Source: Pseudomonadota bacterium (GTDB lineage: Bacteria > Pseudomonadota > Alphaproteobacteria > RF32 > CAG-239). Taken from it: DNA of 64,000 nucleotides. Below the pieces are notes generated by a model that was not told where the DNA came from, ran no database searches, and saw nothing but the letters and a program-made list of their open reading frames with translations. Below are positions 35,360 to 62,907 of this stretch, piece by piece; the stretch's first letter is position 1, and every line of letters starts with the position of its first letter. The translations under genes were made by a program, and so were the position numbers. The stretch spans positions 32,001 to 96,000 of the forward strand of contig CAKJXZ020000030.1 of the NCBI GenBank assembly GCA_918234285.1, written 5' to 3'.

Positions 35360-35381
35360 TTTTCTTTCTTTGATTGAAGGC

Positions 35382-35467
35382 GAAGGGACTCAGACCTCAC
35401 GCTCATCGTTACGGCTGCTTCCTTCCGAACCTGACCGAGTTGGCGAAAGCGTAACCCCGAGCCCTTC
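35382..35467 (-). ncRNA. ffs: Small SRP RNA (4.5S)
   Basis: CAGGTTCGGAAGGAAGCAGC domain IV; terminal GAAGGG/CCCTTC stem; upstream of dnaX. Confidence 0.93.
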
Positions 35468-35548
35468 ATAAAACTCCTTTATATAATGCTTTAAACCGGC
35501 GTTTTTGCAAGCAAAAAAATTCACTTATCAGCCGAACCAAAGCACATT

Positions 35549-42669: not shown

Positions 42670-42863
42670 GCTTCGGTCACTTGGTTGCGATTTGTTCGCT
42701 TCACGGCGTTTACACTTGCTTGCTCACAGGCAACCTGCGCCTGTCGTCAATAAACAACATTTTAAGGTTGTTTATTTTCCTCCAGCCTGTTCTCTAGGGT
42801 TCAAATCCCTTTCACCGCTTTTCAATAACAAAAAAGCGCCGCATGGGCGCTCTTTCGTTATTG
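42670..42863. repeat. tRNA-linked palindromic trailer containing an inverted copy of the tRNA-Ser 3' end
   Basis: CTAGGGTTCAAATCCCTTTCACCGC (42794-42818) vs tRNA CTAGGGTTCGAATCCCTATCTCACCGC; hairpins at 42726-42744, 42749-42776 and 42823-42863. Confidence 0.7.
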
Positions 42864-42878
42864 GCGGTGAGATAGGGA
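42862..42878. repeat. att direct repeat (distal copy)
   Basis: TGGCGGTGAGATAGGGA identical to 50486-50502 (tRNA 3' end). Confidence 0.93.
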
Positions 42879-43338
42879 AACACACTTCACAATGTTTAGA
42901 ACATTTTGTTTTATCAAAACAATTTTTTTGACATTTTTAAACCATTTACTCGCAATTTTTGCAGCGTATTGCAGCGAATGCCAAGGATTATTTTTAACTT
43001 TACCCGAACTTTTTTTTGTTAAAATGATTTTTGCGAGTCGTTTTGAATAAATATTTTTGTAATGAATATATTTTGAATTTAAAAAACTTTATGATTTGAA
43101 AACTCTATTATCCGAATCCCTACGATAAAAACTTTATTATCCCGTATTATTATGTTTTGTGATTGGTGATAACAGAGAGATACTATCACCAATCGTATCT
43201 CTCAACAGCGCTGTTATGCTTATGATGTAGTTGCGGTGATTCCCCTACGGATTAAGCATTAAAGCAACAGACATAACTAAATAAGCAACACAAGCAGAAA
43301 ACTCTGCTATTCTTAACTATTAACCAAAGGATTTATAA

Positions 43339-43833
43339 ATGAAGATATTTTTAACATTTAACCCACATTTAGAAAACTATTCTAAAAGTAAGTTATTAGA
43401 AAACTTTAAGTATGCTTTACAAAAATATTACAGAAAAGAATTAGGAAGAAGATATTACAAGCATATTGATAACCAGTATGATATAGCAATCTTTGAAGAA
43501 ATTGGTAAGAAGTTTTTTGAAAAATTAGATTCAGCAACACATCTAATTCAATATATTGAGAAAGATGTTGAGTTTAAGAAAGAACCTCACTTACATATAA
43601 TTGCTGATGTTCCAACACATACTGAAAAAGATTTTTTCAATTCCTTGAAAGATACTATGGAAAGCATTTATCCATCATTATCATCAGATTTTCAGTTAAT
43701 TGGTAATGAAGTAGATGAAAGAAACACTTGGAACTATTGTTCCAAAGAAAATGGAAACATCTTTACCAAGAAAGATTTATGCGAAAAAAGTGCTATCAAC
43801 ATTCCTGCTGATAGCACTTTTTCACCCAAATAA
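43339..43833 (+). CDS. Small HUH endonuclease, rolling-circle Rep-like
   Basis: Motif I-like IFLTFN, motif II EPHLHII, motif III NYCSKE; AAGGA RBS. Confidence 0.65.
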   Translation: MKIFLTFNPHLENYSKSKLLENFKYALQKYYRKELGRRYYKHIDNQYDIAIFEEIGKKFFEKLDSATHLIQYIEKDVEFKKEPHLHIIADVPTHTEKDFFNSLKDTMESIYPSLSSDFQLIGNEVDERNTWNYCSKENGNIFTKKDLCEKSAINIPADSTFSPK

Positions 43834-44113
43834 GTTGGACTACTTCTCATACTGATTCATAGTTTGTAGTTGTCATCTCAACGGGAGCATCATTATCCGC
43901 AATTGTCAATTATTTTTATTACAGCATCGGGATAACAAAAGAAGTTCCACCAATTAACTGATGGAACTTCCTTGTCCTAATAAGATGGACTACCGCACTA
44001 TTACCTTGGATAGTTGCTAACATCGTCACGGGAGCATCATTATCACCGATTGTCAATTCATTTATCCCGAACCTCTGGATAAAAAATGCTACCGATATTA
44101 CTACCGATAGCAT
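43784..44113 (-). ncRNA. Tandem ~135-nt structured RNA-like cassettes (2 units plus a third terminator)
   Basis: Shared TTGACAAT..GATAATGATGCTCCCGT..ACTA(C/T)-variable loop-GTAGTCCA(A/T)CTTATT, each followed by a terminator hairpin. Confidence 0.5.
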
Positions 44114-44195
44114 ACGAGATTAAATTATTCGTATCATTATTTATCAACAAAACAAGATAAATACTTATGATACTAATTTTTATGGAGATTAAATT

Positions 44196-44624
44196 ATGAT
44201 AAAGAAGAAAACTACTTCCAGAAACACACGCAAGATAGATGAATTAAACACAGCAATAGCAATTAACGATATAAACACTATTCACGAACTATTATCTAAC
44301 AATGTTGATGTTAATGCGCCTGATTCACACGGAGTATTCCCTGTGATGTATGCCGTAGAATACGGCAATGCCAATGCTTTAATCAGTCTCATAAGGCACA
44401 ATGCAATTGTTAATGTTATTTACAAGCAAAACGGATACTCACTCTTGATGAAAGCGTTGTCCCCAAAGGTTATCCCGAATCGTTATTTAATAGTTGCGTT
44501 ATTGTTGAAAAATGGTGCTGATGTAAATATTATCAGTAATGATAGCAAAACAGCGTTATATATGGCGCGTAAGTATCATCCACGATACATCAACCTTTTA
44601 AAACGCTTTGGAGCAACATACTGA
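44196..44624 (+). CDS. Small ankyrin-repeat protein
   Basis: VDVNAPDSHG, GYSLLMKA, GADVNI..TAL; GGAG RBS. Confidence 0.85.
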   Translation: MIKKKTTSRNTRKIDELNTAIAINDINTIHELLSNNVDVNAPDSHGVFPVMYAVEYGNANALISLIRHNAIVNVIYKQNGYSLLMKALSPKVIPNRYLIVALLLKNGADVNIISNDSKTALYMARKYHPRYINLLKRFGATY

Positions 44625-44716
44625 AAGAATTGGAGCAATCAAGAGTTTCATTACACAACCCTTATTATTAATATTCCTGTTGATTGCTCCGAACCATTAT
44701 AACAAAGGATTTAACA

Positions 44717-45737: not shown

Positions 45738-45811
45738 GAAAAAACGCCTAACAATTGACATCTAAACATTATGGTTATATCGTATTACCTGTATTCAATG
45801 ATAGAAGGAGT

Positions 45812-47542
45812 ATGATGATGTCATTAGTGAAATGTCCTGAATGTGGTAAAGAAGTCAGTAGTTCTGCAAAAACTTGTCCTCATTGTGGTTATAAACTCGG
45901 AAAGAAACATTCCTTTTTAGCATTTTTAATTATCCTTATTTTAGGCATCATAGGTATTTCTTCTATATTTGACAATAAGGATACAAATACTTCCGAGGTC
46001 AAGAAGACAATTAAGCGAGAATCCGTAAATATTGATATACAAGATTTACCTAATTTGGAACAAAACTTCATATCTATCATAAAAAATTATAGTGATTTTG
46101 CCCGTAATGTAGATAATCCTGCTCAATATTATACATTGCTCAATCAAAGAACCAATCTTATTAAAGACTTATTGCCAAGCAAAGAAGTAAATGAATGGGG
46201 AGGAAAAGTAATATCTATTGATATAGGTAAAGTACAGTATATATGGGGAACGGAAGTAGATGGTATAATTTTAGGCGTACAGATATCTTCATCTCCACAA
46301 ATTAGGTTAGCATTTATGCTAGATGCAAGAGATGTTTTATCAGAACAAATTGCTTTACTTAAAATTGGCGATATAGTGACAATTTCCGGTAAATTCTATG
46401 AATTAGAAGGGCATAAATATGAAAATAAGGTAGATATGCTGACAAAACCTGTTTTTGAGATGTCTCTTTATGGTGTTAAAAGAGGATATAAGGAATATTA
46501 CTCATATTACGAAAATGGTCCACTACAATCAGAGTGTAATCATAATATGGACTGCAAATACTATTATTGGAATGGAAATTTGCAATTTGAATGCAATATG
46601 AAAGAGGGCAAGAAAAATGGGTATTGTAAAGCATATTATGAAAATGGCAACGTTCAAAATGAGTGTAATTTCAGTGATGATAAATGCAATGGCATTTATA
46701 AAGAATACTATGAAAATGGTTGGTTAAAGGTAGAAGGTGAAGTCAAAGATGGTAATAGTCATGGCACTTATAAAGAATATTATGAAGATGGGTCATTGCA
46801 ATTAGAGTGCAATATGAATGAGGGAAAACAAACAGGATACAGCAAATGGTACTATGAAAATGGTAACGTTAAAAAAGAAGGACTTTTCAGAGATAATAAG
46901 AAAGTTGGAACTTATAAAGAATACAATGAAGACGGTATTTTAGTTCTTGATAGTAACTTTGCAAACGATCAGATGAACGGTATTACCAAAACATATGACA
47001 ATAATGGCAAATTAGAACACGAAAGCAGTATGGTAAATGGAAAATTAAATGGACCTACAAAATCATACTATGAAAATGGAAATATCAAGATGGAATATAA
47101 TTTCAAAGAAGGAATAGCAGATGGAATCCAAAAAGAATATTATGAAGATGGAAATTTACATAGCGAAGGTAATATGGTGAATGGTAAATTAAATGGTATT
47201 AAAAAACGATACTACGATGATGGAAGTTTGCAAGCAGAACTCTCTTTTCAAAATGGTAAATGGCAAAAGACAGTATATTATGGAAAGAATGGAGAAAAAC
47301 TTGGTCCAGATGGTTTGGTTATATTTTATTATAACAATGGAAATATTGAGTCTGAACGTATGCTAAAAAATGGTAAGGTTGAGGGAGAGTTAAAATTATA
47401 TAGTATAGATGGCAAATTAAAAAAGACTATGACGTATAAAAACGGAAAACTAAATGGTAAAATGGTTTCATATAGTTCAAACGGAGAAGTTACAGAAACA
47501 GTTATATACAAAGATGGTGAAATCCAGAGAGATAAACAATAA
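45812..47542 (+). CDS. Zn-ribbon + TM + MORN-variant (YwqK-like) repeat protein
   Basis: CPECG..CPHCG, one TM, ~14 repeats of YYENG(N)L..E..(K)GK..G; AGGAG RBS. Confidence 0.88.
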   Translation: MMMSLVKCPECGKEVSSSAKTCPHCGYKLGKKHSFLAFLIILILGIIGISSIFDNKDTNTSEVKKTIKRESVNIDIQDLPNLEQNFISIIKNYSDFARNVDNPAQYYTLLNQRTNLIKDLLPSKEVNEWGGKVISIDIGKVQYIWGTEVDGIILGVQISSSPQIRLAFMLDARDVLSEQIALLKIGDIVTISGKFYELEGHKYENKVDMLTKPVFEMSLYGVKRGYKEYYSYYENGPLQSECNHNMDCKYYYWNGNLQFECNMKEGKKNGYCKAYYENGNVQNECNFSDDKCNGIYKEYYENGWLKVEGEVKDGNSHGTYKEYYEDGSLQLECNMNEGKQTGYSKWYYENGNVKKEGLFRDNKKVGTYKEYNEDGILVLDSNFANDQMNGITKTYDNNGKLEHESSMVNGKLNGPTKSYYENGNIKMEYNFKEGIADGIQKEYYEDGNLHSEGNMVNGKLNGIKKRYYDDGSLQAELSFQNGKWQKTVYYGKNGEKLGPDGLVIFYYNNGNIESERMLKNGKVEGELKLYSIDGKLKKTMTYKNGKLNGKMVSYSSNGEVTETVIYKDGEIQRDKQ

Positions 47543-47551
47543 CAATATGCT

Positions 47552-48166
47552 CTACATATTCAATGTTTCCAAAGCGTTTTGAATATTCTTAGGATTAGAA
47601 CGATAGTAGATGCTAAGGGTTTGAATAGATGAATGACCGCTTATCTGTTGTATCAACGGCAACGGATAGTTAGCATCCATAAGTTTAGTTAAACAACTTG
47701 CTCTTAAACTATGAACTCTGTATTGCTTATCTAAACCGACACCATCATATACTTGCCGAAAGATATGGATTATCTGTTGCTTTGAGAGATGCGAACCTTT
47801 GTTGGATTTGAACAGATAATCATTCGGTTTTGGCGTATAATAAGGATTTGAAAGCAAATATTTGGCATACTTCTTCAATTCTTGTTTCATAGTGTCGTTA
47901 AAATAAACTTGTAGTGCCTTTTTACCACCTTTATTCTGTTCAGGTTGTAATAAGAATGAATCAACAGGGTTGAAGTTATCATCATATACTTGCCCGATAG
48001 TGAGTTTTTGAACTGAATGAATACGAAGTGCTGTCATTAACATCATCATAAACATCAATCTCGTTCTTTCACTATGTGAAGGCATATCGTTGATGAACCG
48101 CAAGCAATTTTTGATGTCGGTATCCGTCAATAACTTTGATTTTCCTTTCTTCATTTTACTCTCCAT
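47552..48166 (-). CDS. Small catalytic-domain-only tyrosine recombinase
   Basis: ALRI, K, HSLR, SGHSS, TLSIY. Confidence 0.9.
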   Translation of the reverse strand: MESKMKKGKSKLLTDTDIKNCLRFINDMPSHSERTRLMFMMMLMTALRIHSVQKLTIGQVYDDNFNPVDSFLLQPEQNKGGKKALQVYFNDTMKQELKKYAKYLLSNPYYTPKPNDYLFKSNKGSHLSKQQIIHIFRQVYDGVGLDKQYRVHSLRASCLTKLMDANYPLPLIQQISGHSSIQTLSIYYRSNPKNIQNALETLNM

Positions 48167-48329: not shown

Positions 48330-50411
48330 TTATCTCTTTATCTTGGAACGATGATATTCTCGTTTCTTCGGCATATCGGTCGGGCGGACTTTGAGTTTCT
48401 CCCAGTCAATCATCGGGAACTCCAACTTATCAAGTGCATACTTCAACCGCTCCAATGGTATCATTCCGTTGTTGTATGACGAATACGCACGCCTATCATT
48501 TTTGCTCCAACCACCAATCTCTATGGCATAAGAATCAACGAACCCGAGCATCTTCATATTTTGTGCCAAGTTATGACGGAACGAGTGAAAGACTTTTGTA
48601 GCACTACGAATCTTCAACTTGTTCAAATACTTTGCAAACCATCCGCCAACATACTTGCCGTATCTATCATTTGAATTATACGCCAACTCAAACAATTTTT
48701 TGTGCAGATGTTTTTTTCTCTCGCCCACATAGTCCAAGAATCCCAAATCCAGTATCTTTTGCGGAATTGGAACAATACGAATGTTTTGAGTCTTGGTGCG
48801 TTTCACTTCCTTTTTCTTTGAGGCAGTTTCTCGGTCATCTGGTGAGATATGCAGACAATAGATTCCGCTGTGCTTTTGAATATCAGCAACATCAAGTTGG
48901 CATAACTCATTTAAGCGACAACCAAGGAATAGTGCCAATAAAGGAATCCAAAACAATTCGGGATGTAAGGCAGGAGTATCTTTAACTATGCATTGGGGAT
49001 ATGTTCGGTAATCAAATATTTTCGCCAACTCATCATCCGTAAAATGTTCGTAGGACTGCTTTTTCCCTTTGGCATACTTAATCTTGTATCTGCTAAACGG
49101 ATTGGAATAAATGATTTCCTCTTGCAACAAGAAGTTCGCAAATGTGTTGAACAACTTGATGTGTCCTCTTATCGTTGGGTCGCTTATTTTTGGAACACTT
49201 ATTTTATCGGCACATTCCTTAAGCACTTCAAAAACATCTCTATCCTTAAACTTTTGTTGGAAGTTAGCAGGCAAGAGTTTCAAGTTCTTTTCAAGTTCCT
49301 CAATGTCTTGCTTACAGATTTTATCAACGCCTTTATACTTCACCAATTCAAACATACGGAGCAACATATTCTTGTGTGAAGATATTGTTTTTGCCGACAC
49401 ACCCTGCAATTTCTGCTCTTTCTCCCACATCTGCAAATACTTCTTGTAGTCAAATACTGGTGATTTAACAGCAATTTGCTCCAAATGATTCTTATTCAAA
49501 CTCTTTGCAGTATCAAGTATTGTGGTAAAATATATAGAGATTGGATATTCTTTTCCCGTTTTGATAGATTCCAAATAGTTGAGCAATAGTTCTTCCGATT
49601 CACGCATTTTATCAGCAAGTTCTGCCAAAGAAAACATCATATCACCGATATCGTAGTCCTCATCACCTTTATGTCGTTCCAAAACATCTTGCAAATCTTC
49701 ATTATTGTTGCCAACAATCTCATAATCATTCTTATCAAAGGCATAAATGATTGCATTGGGATTGTCCTGCAAAATATCCACCAACTCTCTATCAACATTA
49801 CGATTCACAATATCCTTATTTAATACTTTGAGTATGTAATCGTATAGTTGGTTATACTTCACACTTTCTGACGGATTGGCGATTCGTTCTTCTTCAATGG
49901 TTCTTACCTTGTATCCGTCATAAACATCTTGCTTTATAAGCGTTTCAAAAATTGTTTCACCATCAGGTGTTTCGTATTCAACATCTGCGAGTCGCTCCAT
50001 ATCTGTCAAGTGAATTGGGCGATAGAAGCAGAAGTCCTTAAATGTTTTCTTGCCCGACTTAATGTCGCTCTCGTATCGTTCAACTTTCTTCAACACATCC
50101 AACCACCACTGCACGAAGATATGCTTAACCTCAGTATAAGTCAGACATAACCTTATTTCCTTGGTGTGTTTGTGTCGCAGTTTCAACATCTCTTGATACT
50201 TCCTCTCATAGGATTGTATGAGCAAATCTGTTTTGTAGGCATATTCCTTAACTTTATGGAGTGCTTGGTAATAATCCTTTGTGAATAAAGAATAGAAGAA
50301 GTTTTTGCGTTTGGCAATCTCCACCAGATGTTTAGGCACAACGAATCGTGCATAATAGGTATGATTCCTTATTGTCAGATGTGGATATAAAGAAAGCATT
50401 TGTTGTATCAC
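48330..50411 (-). CDS. Large tyrosine integrase with N-terminal DUF6538-like domain
   Basis: HLTIRNHTYYARFVVPKHL; GCRLNE, KT, FHSFRH, GGWS, Y; next to the att site. Confidence 0.92.
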   Translation of the reverse strand: MIQQMLSLYPHLTIRNHTYYARFVVPKHLVEIAKRKNFFYSLFTKDYYQALHKVKEYAYKTDLLIQSYERKYQEMLKLRHKHTKEIRLCLTYTEVKHIFVQWWLDVLKKVERYESDIKSGKKTFKDFCFYRPIHLTDMERLADVEYETPDGETIFETLIKQDVYDGYKVRTIEEERIANPSESVKYNQLYDYILKVLNKDIVNRNVDRELVDILQDNPNAIIYAFDKNDYEIVGNNNEDLQDVLERHKGDEDYDIGDMMFSLAELADKMRESEELLLNYLESIKTGKEYPISIYFTTILDTAKSLNKNHLEQIAVKSPVFDYKKYLQMWEKEQKLQGVSAKTISSHKNMLLRMFELVKYKGVDKICKQDIEELEKNLKLLPANFQQKFKDRDVFEVLKECADKISVPKISDPTIRGHIKLFNTFANFLLQEEIIYSNPFSRYKIKYAKGKKQSYEHFTDDELAKIFDYRTYPQCIVKDTPALHPELFWIPLLALFLGCRLNELCQLDVADIQKHSGIYCLHISPDDRETASKKKEVKRTKTQNIRIVPIPQKILDLGFLDYVGERKKHLHKKLFELAYNSNDRYGKYVGGWFAKYLNKLKIRSATKVFHSFRHNLAQNMKMLGFVDSYAIEIGGWSKNDRRAYSSYNNGMIPLERLKYALDKLEFPMIDWEKLKVRPTDMPKKREYHRSKIKR

Positions 50412-50485: not shown

Positions 50486-50577
50486 TGGCGGTGAGATAGG
50501 GATTCGAACCCTAGGTACGCGGTAAAACGTACAATTGATTTCGAGTCAACCGCATTCGACCACTCTGCCATCTCACC
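50486..50577 (-). tRNA. tRNA-Ser (anticodon CGA)
   Basis: GGTGAGA/TCTCACC acceptor stem, GTTGA-CTCGAAA-TCAAT anticodon arm, long variable arm, GGTTCGAATCC, encoded CCA. Confidence 0.97.
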
Positions 50578-62740: not shown

Positions 62741-62896
62741 GGAAGACTGTCTGACGCGTATTAACCGCATGTCTCTCGAGCCAACATTATCAATTCGGGA
62801 ACTGTCTCTGTCCGGATCGTGGTCCGGTTATATGGTGCCCACCTAGTAACAAGCGGTTCGGTCTGAATGTAAGAGCATACGGTCAGACGGTTTTCT
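62741..62896 (+). ncRNA. ssrS: 6S RNA
   Basis: Closing stem GAAGACTGTCTGAC/GTCAGACGGTTTTC; GGGAACTGT and ATGGTGCCCACCT blocks; directly after zapA. Confidence 0.85.
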
Positions 62897-62907
62897 CTTT
62901 TTAAATT

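Follow-up and report, generated by a model that had tools for sequence, protein, structure and literature searches.

What is encoded by a tandem array of structured repeats that lies between a gene for an HUH-like protein and a divergent ankyrin-repeat gene in a rumen alphaproteobacterium? The array is located in a 64,000-nucleotide stretch of contig CAKJXZ020000030.1 (GenBank assembly GCA_918234285.1), referred to here as the window, within a genome of 2.0 Mb and ~45% GC, and it consists of units 0, A, and B on the minus strand. The array and its units are a real, conserved feature. From comparative sequence analysis they are best classed as antisense small RNAs (sRNAs) encoded by a mobile element, with a previously undescribed family of structured leaders upstream of YpsA/SLOG-family genes as their likely target and source. 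A more specific assignment, in which the units act by base pairing, unit 0 on the ankyrin mRNA and units A and B on YpsA/SLOG leaders, is the reading that we favor, and it is held tentatively, at somewhat less than an even chance.

Anatomy and conservation of the units

On the minus strand, the sequence AATTGACA begins at 44058 in unit A and again at 43911 in unit B, a spacing of 147 bp. In both units it is followed by N4-GATAATGATGCTCCCGT, by CAACTA(C/T), by loops that differ between the two, by GTAGTCCA(A/T)CTTATT, and by a hairpin with a T run. As RNA, each unit would present a short hairpin (ACUAY...GUAGU), then GUAGUCCA(A/U)CUUAUU, and then a strong T-run hairpin. The original prediction, which described two minus-strand units 147 bp apart with a conserved body, a variable hairpin loop, and a terminator each, was thus recovered nearly letter for letter. 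A repeat search returned the pair as D1 (66 nt, 73% identity, spacing 147) and D2 (36 nt, 75% identity, spacing 150), together with D3, which relates terminator B to 44081-44112 (32 nt, 78% identity). The genome contains exactly two copies of the 17-mer GATAATGATGCTCCCGT. Predicted folds were more stable than those of shuffled sequences for unit B (z -3.76, with 0 of 200 shuffles as stable), for unit A (z -3.59, 1 of 200), and for the segment 44075-44200 (z -4.50, 0 of 200).

Homologous units were sought with exact-pattern scans, BLAST, and covariance models, and were found at eight further loci: two in genome G125, one each in G213, G208, G200, and G067 (the last from another genus), and two on metagenome contigs. 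With the window, this gave an aligned set of 12 units from 9 loci, in which records L008 and L015 are the same, as are L007, L009, and L016. The array and its ankyrin gene are kept across all nine island loci, including the one from another genus (L071), while the flanks vary. The exact pattern TTGACA-N6-GATAATGATGCTCCCG was present on two contigs each from genomes and metagenomes and on no viral contig; searches with motifs of the leaders and of the units likewise gave no viral match. A search against phage and plasmid sequences, as had been suggested for the loops, was equally empty: blastn with 43780-44200 matched none of 50,697 phage and 72,556 plasmid records. Sequences close to the 17-mer in G034, G100, and G135 proved to be unrelated, with those at L004 and L005 resembling coding sequence.

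Read in the minus-strand orientation, the region contains three consecutive hairpins with T runs, one for each of units 0, A, and B, and in the alignments all 12 island units end in a GC-containing hairpin and a U run, as in sRNA genes with Rho-independent terminators. A terminator consensus scan lists one of the three (44113-44086); terminators A and B fall outside its rules for stem, loop, and tail and are evident in the fold and the repeats. The earlier observation that the two terminators differ in sequence and keep the hairpin is confirmed by inverted repeats at both. Among the terminator B stems of the eight B-type units, 19 G.U cells were counted versus 3 A.C cells, which favors the minus strand. 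Given the A run and the T run at its sides, terminator B could end transcription of the HUH-like gene, on the plus strand, as well. Its position inside the last ~50 nt of that open reading frame (ORF; 43339-43833) agrees with the predicted overlap of one unit with the rep 3' end, an overlap that involves the terminator only.

The pairing within the units was less well supported. A helix between GATAA.GATG and CA(A/T)CTTATT had been proposed; it is possible on paper and does not covary in the 12 island units, where its cells were paired in 82.8% of cases versus 82.6% in shuffled alignments (284 of 500 shuffles reached the observed value). Covariation was likewise not found among these units for an alternative CCCG/YGGG helix, and RNAalifold, applied to the eight B-type units, proposed a different pairing of the 5' region with the loop without compensatory change. 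As for promoters, TTGACA does lack a canonical -10 element at 17 nt, as had been noted, the position reading TCCCGT. A promoter scan placed TTGTTA-18-AATAAT (9/12) at 43938-43909 before unit B, which alone among the units has such a match. An AT-rich, -10-like stretch precedes the conserved 5' block by 3-9 nt in 12 of 12 units; a consistent -35 element was not found.

Some smaller motifs recur around the units. TTATCCnGAnG is conserved after every terminator, unit A lies between the 9-10-nt complementary motifs UCGGGAUAA and UUAUCCCGA, and terminator 0 is separated from unit A by a small hairpin. The post-terminator and flanking motifs (43927-43935, 44062-44070, and 44074-44083) could be processing stems or promoter elements.

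Antisense relations of the units to leaders and to the ankyrin gene

When the island region alone was used as a BLAST query, it retrieved chromosomal sequences in G205 (91% over 47 nt, E 2.6e-12), G206 (E 5.4e-6), and G184 (E 1.6e-4), all three at loci richer in GC than the island. R1, a short covariance model built from the hairpin core, had matches at E<=0.1 in 24 of 50 genomes from the genus. At E<=0.001 it matched 13 of the 151 genomes sampled from the family, and these 13 fall in 7 of 23 genera; both counts take island and leader types together. The chromosomal sites represent one conserved element of ~300 nt, positioned directly upstream of a gene for a YpsA/SLOG-family protein of 146-197 amino acids (aa). 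Leader loci include C42:3250-3600 and C20:77290-77640 in G000, the genome carrying the window (C numbers are its contigs), as well as L019, L020, L040, L043-L052, L060-L070, and L072-L076. Their neighbors are unrelated housekeeping genes (ClpX, DegT, RecX, AcrB, and ABC transporters), which indicates a cassette of promoter, leader, and gene that is scattered over chromosomes, often in multiple copies. The homologue search that had been recommended therefore did reveal associated genes: the divergent ankyrin gene for the islands and YpsA/SLOG genes for the antisense leader homologues.

Covariation in the leader was evaluated in an alignment of 28 copies, with cells counted on the strand of the island units. 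A variable 11-bp long-range helix covaries at 9 of 11 pairs (Watson-Crick [WC] 258, G.U 2, A.C 30, other 5) and an adjacent 8-bp helix, UAACAAC/GUUGUUA, at 5 of 8 (WC 167, G.U 26, A.C 11, other 15). The 5'-proximal hairpin P7 covaries at 7 of 8 pairs (WC 174, G.U 1, A.C 33, other 4), P1 at 3 of 8 (WC 209, G.U 0, A.C 14, other 1), and P2 at 3 of 5 (WC 119, G.U 0, A.C 20, other 1). Non-WC cells are mostly A.C on this strand and hence G.U on the opposite one, which places the functional leader on the gene-sense strand. Read on the gene-sense strand, the variable helix has a paired fraction of 0.98 (0.88 for the opposite strand); row shuffling gave 0.74 (maximum 0.79) and sliding 0.24-0.47. In 27 of 28 copies, as read by eye, the gene-sense strand carries an aligned sigma-70-type promoter upstream (TTGnnn, ~17 nt, TATA(A/G/C)T), which resembles the promoters of this genome's 6S, signal recognition particle (SRP), and tRNA genes. 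The P7 loop pairs with a motif adjoining the start codon, with compensating changes between L049 (UCGGAC/GUCCGA) and L051 (ACGGAC/GUCCGU).

In L067 (G112 C12, ~98.2-98.9 kb), two tandem leader copies are identical except for two mutually complementary variable segments, as would be expected if the helix is a specificity determinant; each copy is preceded by an identical fragment of the 5' end of the YpsA-like gene. The leader also shows apparent double loop-to-strand pairings. Rfam scans of leader loci L018-L020 returned nothing relevant, and the leader is absent from Rfam 15. On these comparisons the ~300-nt leader is a candidate for a new cis-regulatory RNA, previously undescribed. Classification of the chromosomal element as a retron, a diversity-generating retroelement, an integron attC site, or a miniature inverted-repeat transposable element was dropped, since no reverse-transcriptase gene adjoins the copies read, the element covaries as RNA with G.U pairs on one strand, and its promoter is conserved. 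Downstream of the YpsA-like gene at L020 (1-900), a weak bAvd-like ORF (Pfam E 1.1e-5, below cutoff) is followed by an Asn-rich ORF; it may hint at a diversity-generating retroelement, and no such hint was seen at the other leader loci.

G000 itself holds two full leaders (C42 and C20), one at a contig end (C19), and one divergent copy (C1). The last, at C1:44560-44900, has the same architecture and promoter, and the ORF behind it has a signal-peptide-like N terminus and is not YpsA-like; an outer-membrane protein would be our guess.

The cores of units A and B (55-60 nt) correspond to a single segment of this leader, comprising the start of P1, P2 with the variable strand in its loop, and the first part of P3. 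Within that segment the leader carries the 3' strand of the hypervariable long-range helix, which the units read in antisense, and in each unit this leader-derived core is joined to a 5' block and a terminator of the unit's own. Taken with the T runs and the G.U pairs of terminator B, which set the strand of the units, the covariation and promoter of the leader on its gene-sense strand make the units antisense to the functional leader strand. The unit loop therefore displays the sequence of the leader's own 5' variable-helix strand, and the entire core is antisense to the leader sequence in and around the 3' strand. The conserved scaffold and variable loop of the original prediction are both present, with a revised identity: the scaffold is an antisense piece of the leader and the loop is one strand of its variable helix.

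Units A and B correspond to separate classes of the variable helix. The loop of unit B belongs to class AAUCAGUAUGAG, with leaders L018, L020, L069, and L070 as the nearest, of which L018 (91% over 47 nt) and L020 (84% over 43 nt) are in other species. The loop of unit A has the CCAAGG of leaders L047, L049, and L051, and unit A shares the motif AAUAGUGCG with the divergent leaders G000 C1 and L053. Predicted pairing of unit B with resident leaders reached -51.2 and -58.1 kcal/mol, mainly through the constant part, and both values are stronger than those of 120 random 350-nt genome windows (-38.8 +/- 4.4, minimum -49.1 kcal/mol). Chromosomal leader cassettes, as read from the alignment, have no terminator on the antisense strand, and the island contains no YpsA-like gene and no additional leader piece. 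A genome-wide scan for 11-mer complements of the units yielded chance-level noise only. The conserved 5' block is without support as an anti-start site: its complement has no second genome copy within 1 mismatch, and allowing up to 3 mismatches gave five matches, of which two are the units themselves and the other three have no obvious start site.

Unit 0 addresses a different gene. The repeat search revealed a 13-nt exact direct repeat at 44116-44128 and 44185-44197, the second copy being the Shine-Dalgarno-to-start region of the ankyrin gene. In all five islands with both features, an 11-14-nt copy (<=1 mismatch) of the island's own Shine-Dalgarno-to-start region abuts the unit 0 hairpin; the observed length was reached by 0, 2, 0, 12, and 6 of 500 shuffles, respectively. 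Ankyrin start regions vary from island to island, and the unit 0 sequence covaries with that of its own island. As the copies are alike within islands yet different between them, a single ancestral duplication is not sufficient, and the match is under selection; by the same covariation, the array uses antisense copies of 5' regions. Among the gene starts of the island, the 14-nt complementarity of unit 0 is to the ankyrin site only. An anti-start site directly before a terminator is the usual layout of a pairing sRNA. The segment 44081-44113 had been viewed as a third, truncated unit, and it does end in a terminator related to terminator B; with its anti-start site, it is not a mere remnant.

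The divergent neighbor was an ankyrin gene in 6 of 6 loci tested that have an intact ORF (the window, L008, L009, L013, L026, and L071), and it is accompanied across loci by an operator-like inverted repeat and the first terminator hairpin. The core of this repeat, TTATTTATC..GATAAATA, is retained in other islands. The repeat at 44122-44179 may be an operator-like site, or it may form a hairpin in one or the other transcript.

Proposed mechanism and rival explanations

In the mechanism that we infer, which extends to transcription of the units, their transcript starts, their pairing, and the direction of its effect, the single-stranded segment of unit 0 next to its terminator would pair with the ankyrin mRNA from the Shine-Dalgarno sequence to the AUG and so block or tune translation. 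Since the loop of units A and B is the leader's own 5' helix strand, their RNAs should pair with a matching leader and displace its helix. A unit RNA would outcompete the intramolecular variable helix, the leader would be refolded, exposed, or destabilized, and expression of the downstream YpsA-like gene would change; the two loop classes would then provide two specificities. Two reports on Bacillus (PMC6459960, PMC7376506) describe inhibition of cell division when YpsA is overexpressed, and a mobile element could conceivably gain by controlling such genes. A bolder version, which we consider unlikely, makes the island an arsenal of interchangeable anti-leader RNAs that silence or unleash host conflict or division-inhibitor genes, with an arms race between helix and loop and with autoregulation of the ankyrin gene by unit 0.

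If the antisense reading is correct, mobile elements can make regulators simply by copying the 5' region of a target in reverse, adding a terminator, and repeating this for each target, and the island uses RNA to tune both its own and host genes. An integrative island would be linked to an undescribed, ~300-nt structured leader of YpsA/SLOG genes, and the helix of that leader, hypervariable yet always complementary, would be explained as a specificity determinant. Two RNA-target pairs are proposed: the ankyrin start for unit 0 and the leader for unit B, both in poorly studied rumen Alphaproteobacteria.

Several results weigh against this reading. No convincing sigma-70 promoter was found for the array, the scan giving 6 sites in the region versus 8.0 +/- 3.2 in shuffles. 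None of the G000 leaders matches the loop of unit A or of unit B (C42 has AAUCGACGCGAU, C20 has AAAUAACACGAA, and C1 differs too), and no loop-matched resident leader was seen in G125, G200, G208, or G213. Predicted pairing of unit A with the resident leaders was no better than background (z -0.3 to -0.7). The sequences of the island units differ too little for their fold to be judged by covariation. Against Pfam PF06908 (YpsA; cutoff 27.7 bits), just 4 of 14 leader-linked ORFs pass (28.5-30.6 bits), 6 score below the cutoff, and 4 have no match; the ORFs at G000 C42 and L020 scored 22.0 and 25.4 bits. Finally, the reverse complements of the units stand upstream of the ankyrin gene in the orientation in which the leader stands before a YpsA gene.

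This last point makes decay of an old cassette a serious rival, one that we nonetheless regard as unlikely. The ankyrin gene would have replaced a YpsA-like gene, the duplicated leader pieces would be nonfunctional, and the hairpins would merely stop stray or convergent transcription in the interval from the HUH-like gene to the ankyrin gene. Just 55-60 nt of the ~300-nt leader is present, decayed leaders are found at other loci (such as L018, where the SLOG gene is truncated), G145 (L014) retains the ankyrin gene and terminator 0 with no unit, and the array promoter was not established by the scan. However, core, 5' block, and private terminator are kept together in the 12 units, into a second genus, despite differing flanks, and the loops vary among islands on a constant scaffold. 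Insulation hardly explains three one-directional terminators, each followed by a conserved restart region, and unit 0 shows selection for antisense complementarity.

Purely local regulation within the island, of copy number through the HUH-like replication (Rep) protein or of the ankyrin operon, with the leader resemblance reflecting ancestry only, is quite unlikely. Unit 0 clearly addresses the ankyrin gene, the unit B terminator lies within the 3' end of the HUH-like gene, an HUH-like family protein is convergent at 5 of 9 loci, and others have iteron-like repeats and a winged-helix gene. Yet it is only the terminator that overlaps, and the overlap is missing at 4 of 9 loci. Replication countertranscripts pair with the leader of the rep mRNA, not with its 3' end, and the complementarity of units A and B to island gene starts (<=7-12 nt) is in the chance range. 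The functional part of the original prediction is accordingly reduced: antisense or decoy RNAs acting by base pairing remain the best reading, guide-like RNAs are left without an effector gene, and copy-number control does not fit the four loci that lack the HUH-like gene.

Protein-binding RNAs, acting as decoys or sponges for a factor of leader P2/P3 or arising as pieces of a processed precursor, are improbable. They would account for the hairpin and GUAGUCC..CUUAUU as the most conserved parts of units and leaders, for the likeness of the motifs around unit A to a processing stem, and for the conserved motif after every terminator. No candidate protein is linked, though, and the units are opposite to the functional leader strand, so that a protein site made by sequence rather than by a helix would not have been copied.

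HUH enzymes act on DNA hairpins, and an HUH-like gene adjoins the array, but elements working as DNA, whether hairpin origins or nick sites for the nuclease or mobile-element repeats, are very improbable: the three hairpins differ in sequence, each has its T run on one side only, one of the strands accepts G.U-type pairs, many chromosomal sites have the core but no HUH gene, and 4 of 9 islands have no HUH-like gene. A decayed coding duplication or small peptides, raised by the in-frame LTIxDNDAPV of both units and by a frame open from the TTG of TTGACA in all units read, is scarcely conceivable, as this frame closes after 14-47 codons at different places with no Shine-Dalgarno sequence before it, the peptide becomes LTIRVIAAPW in L071 and LTIHGYCCLL in L010_A, the 64-aa ORF has no Pfam match, and the homologous leader segment is noncoding and covaries as RNA.

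No Rfam family accounts for the array. The proposed Rfam check gave no family at gathering threshold among 4227 Rfam 15 models, the window matching only 6S RNA, SRP RNA, and tRNA elsewhere. At E<=10, 14 matches in 43300-44700 were all below threshold, the best being mir-17 (32 versus 49.5 bits) on terminator B. The closest layout is that of tandem sibling sRNAs such as AbcR1/AbcR2, OmrA/OmrB, and PrrF1/PrrF2, which are likewise head-to-tail genes of ~100-130 nt with their own terminators and with diverged pairing regions on a shared scaffold. The array differs from them in its place on an integrative island, in bodies that are antisense to a 5' leader family, in promoters that are not evident, and in the lack of an Rfam family. 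The c4 RNA of P1/P7 and the CI RNA of satellite phage P4 (RF01695) are short mobile-element RNAs comparable in the proposed mechanism. Their hairpin loops pair with sites in a leader transcript, and paired changes of loop and site set specificity; the leader described here likewise has two complementary hypervariable segments. These immunity RNAs are processed from the leader that they control, whereas the present units are separate genes antisense to leaders encoded elsewhere, and no Rfam match, C4 included, was obtained for the units or the leader loci.

Type I antitoxin RNAs such as Sok, which acts on hok, are also aimed at a long, structured mRNA leader with long-range pairings, as proposed here, but the units are not encoded opposite their target, and the product is a SLOG-domain protein of 146-197 aa rather than a small membrane peptide. 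DicF, IpeX, and AgvB/AsxR exemplify sRNAs of acquired elements that rewire host expression by pairing, as would the units; they are single genes with short seeds, in contrast to long antisense copies of a leader module with two specificities. The replication countertranscripts RNAII of pMV158, RNAI/II of pT181, and CopA of R1 are terminator-ended antisense RNAs beside a Rep-like gene, as here. They overlap the rep leader, whereas in the array just the terminator reaches into the 3' end of the HUH-like gene and the body matches the leaders of other genes; the best complementarity to the start region of the HUH-like gene was 8-9 nt. ToxI arrays consist of ~36-nt identical tandem repeats beside an endoribonuclease gene, and a type III array of this kind was rejected, the units here being ~147 bp apart, 73-75% alike, and each with a terminator, next to ankyrin and HUH-like genes. 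A CRISPR or guide-RNA array was rejected as well, given 2-3 diverged units and no Cas-like or TnpB/IscB-like gene in the island.

Island setting and neighboring genes

GC content falls to 30-37% between ~43 and 51 kb of the window, versus ~45% outside. Together with the 17-bp direct repeats, one of which overlaps a tRNA gene, and the integrase-family genes, this defines an integrated element of ~7.6 kb (Table 1).

Table 1. Positions in the window of the array, its parts, and the features of the surrounding island
Feature	Position	Strand	Description or evidence
17-bp exact direct repeat, left copy	42862..42878		Bounds island
HUH-like gene, 164 aa	43339..43833	+	Convergent with unit B
Unit B, predicted sRNA, ~120-128 nt	43784..43911	-	Repeats, fold, homologues at 8 other island loci; 5' block TTGACAAT-N4-GATAATGATGCTCCCGT; hairpin ACUAC/GUAGU with loop AAUCAGUAUGAGAA; GUCC-N2-CUUAUU-UGGG; terminator B
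Terminator B	43785-43822	-	17-bp stem, arms 94% complementary; A run and T run at its sides
Unit B core	43822..43881	-	Antisense to YpsA/SLOG leader family; R1 77.4 bits; leader-profile nhmmer E 5.9e-5
Unit A, predicted sRNA, ~125 nt	43934..44058	-	Repeats and fold; 5' block of unit B type; hairpin ACUAU-CCAAGGUA-AUAGU, then GCGGUAGUCC, then AUCUUAUUAGGAC; terminator A
Terminator A	43938-43973 plus TTTTGTT	-	Inverted repeat
Unit A core	43972..44028	-	Antisense to leader family, weaker; R1 47.2 bits, E 1.1e-7; leader-profile nhmmer E 0.26
Unit 0	44080..44128	-	Anti-ribosome-binding-site sequence (complement of 44115-44128) directly before terminator 0
Terminator 0	Stem 44113-44086, T run to ~44080	-	Terminator consensus scan
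Imperfect inverted repeat	44122..44179		24-nt arms, 10 nt apart, 75% complementary; covers predicted ankyrin promoter
Predicted ankyrin promoter, TCAACA-16-TATGAT	44144-44171	+	Promoter scan
Ankyrin-repeat gene, 142 aa	44196..44624	+	Pfam Ank_2 E 1.9e-13; divergent from array
Integrase-family genes	47552-48166 (204 aa) and 48330-50411 (693 aa)		tRNA side of island
17-bp exact direct repeat, right copy	50486-50502		Overlaps 3' end of tRNA gene
tRNA gene	50489-50577	-	Rfam scan of window

The 164-aa neighbor of the array is likely an HUH endonuclease. The protein had no match in Pfam or PHROGs. It belongs to a family of 29 proteins in which, across 21 aligned relatives, TFNPH and HLHI are invariant and NYCxKE is nearly so. 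At the island loci where such a protein is convergent to the last unit, identity was 80% in L013 and 73% in L009, and 26-32% in L026 and L017, where HxH and Y are kept. An AlphaFold2 model (predicted local distance difference test [pLDDT] 83.9) was aligned with VIA-align, which placed RAYT 4er8 and SIRV1 ORF119 2x3g (both Z 8.6) among its top rows. Rep proteins of parvoviruses, geminiviruses, and circoviruses scored Z 6.6-8.0, alignments to RAYT and to viral and plasmid Reps together spanned Z 6.6-8.6, unrelated ferredoxin-like folds were tied with these, and Foldseek gave generic folds only and no HUH match. As the Rep and RAYT scores are tied with generic ferredoxin-like folds and Foldseek is generic too, the HUH identity is no more than likely.

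Islands without the HUH-like gene carry, after the unit, AT-rich, iteron-like repeats of the TTCATTTTC type (L008:3500-3900, L011 reverse complement:330-700, and L071:1600-1975) and a helix-turn-helix or winged-helix gene; these may form an alternative replication module. The other genes of the window's island are two ORFs without a family and one for a zinc-ribbon and MORN-repeat protein of 595 aa (45755-47542). In a PHROGs search, proteins of the island and of the leader neighborhoods had integrase and generic matches only. An island of G125 (L009:5505-7040) encodes a 511-aa protein with a superinfection-immunity domain (Imm_superinfect) and many ankyrin repeats. Elsewhere in the window, the 6S RNA and small SRP RNA genes (62741-62897 and 35376-35470) are ordinary, and upstream of them is a host promoter of the form TTG(C/T)AA-N17/18-TAnnnT.

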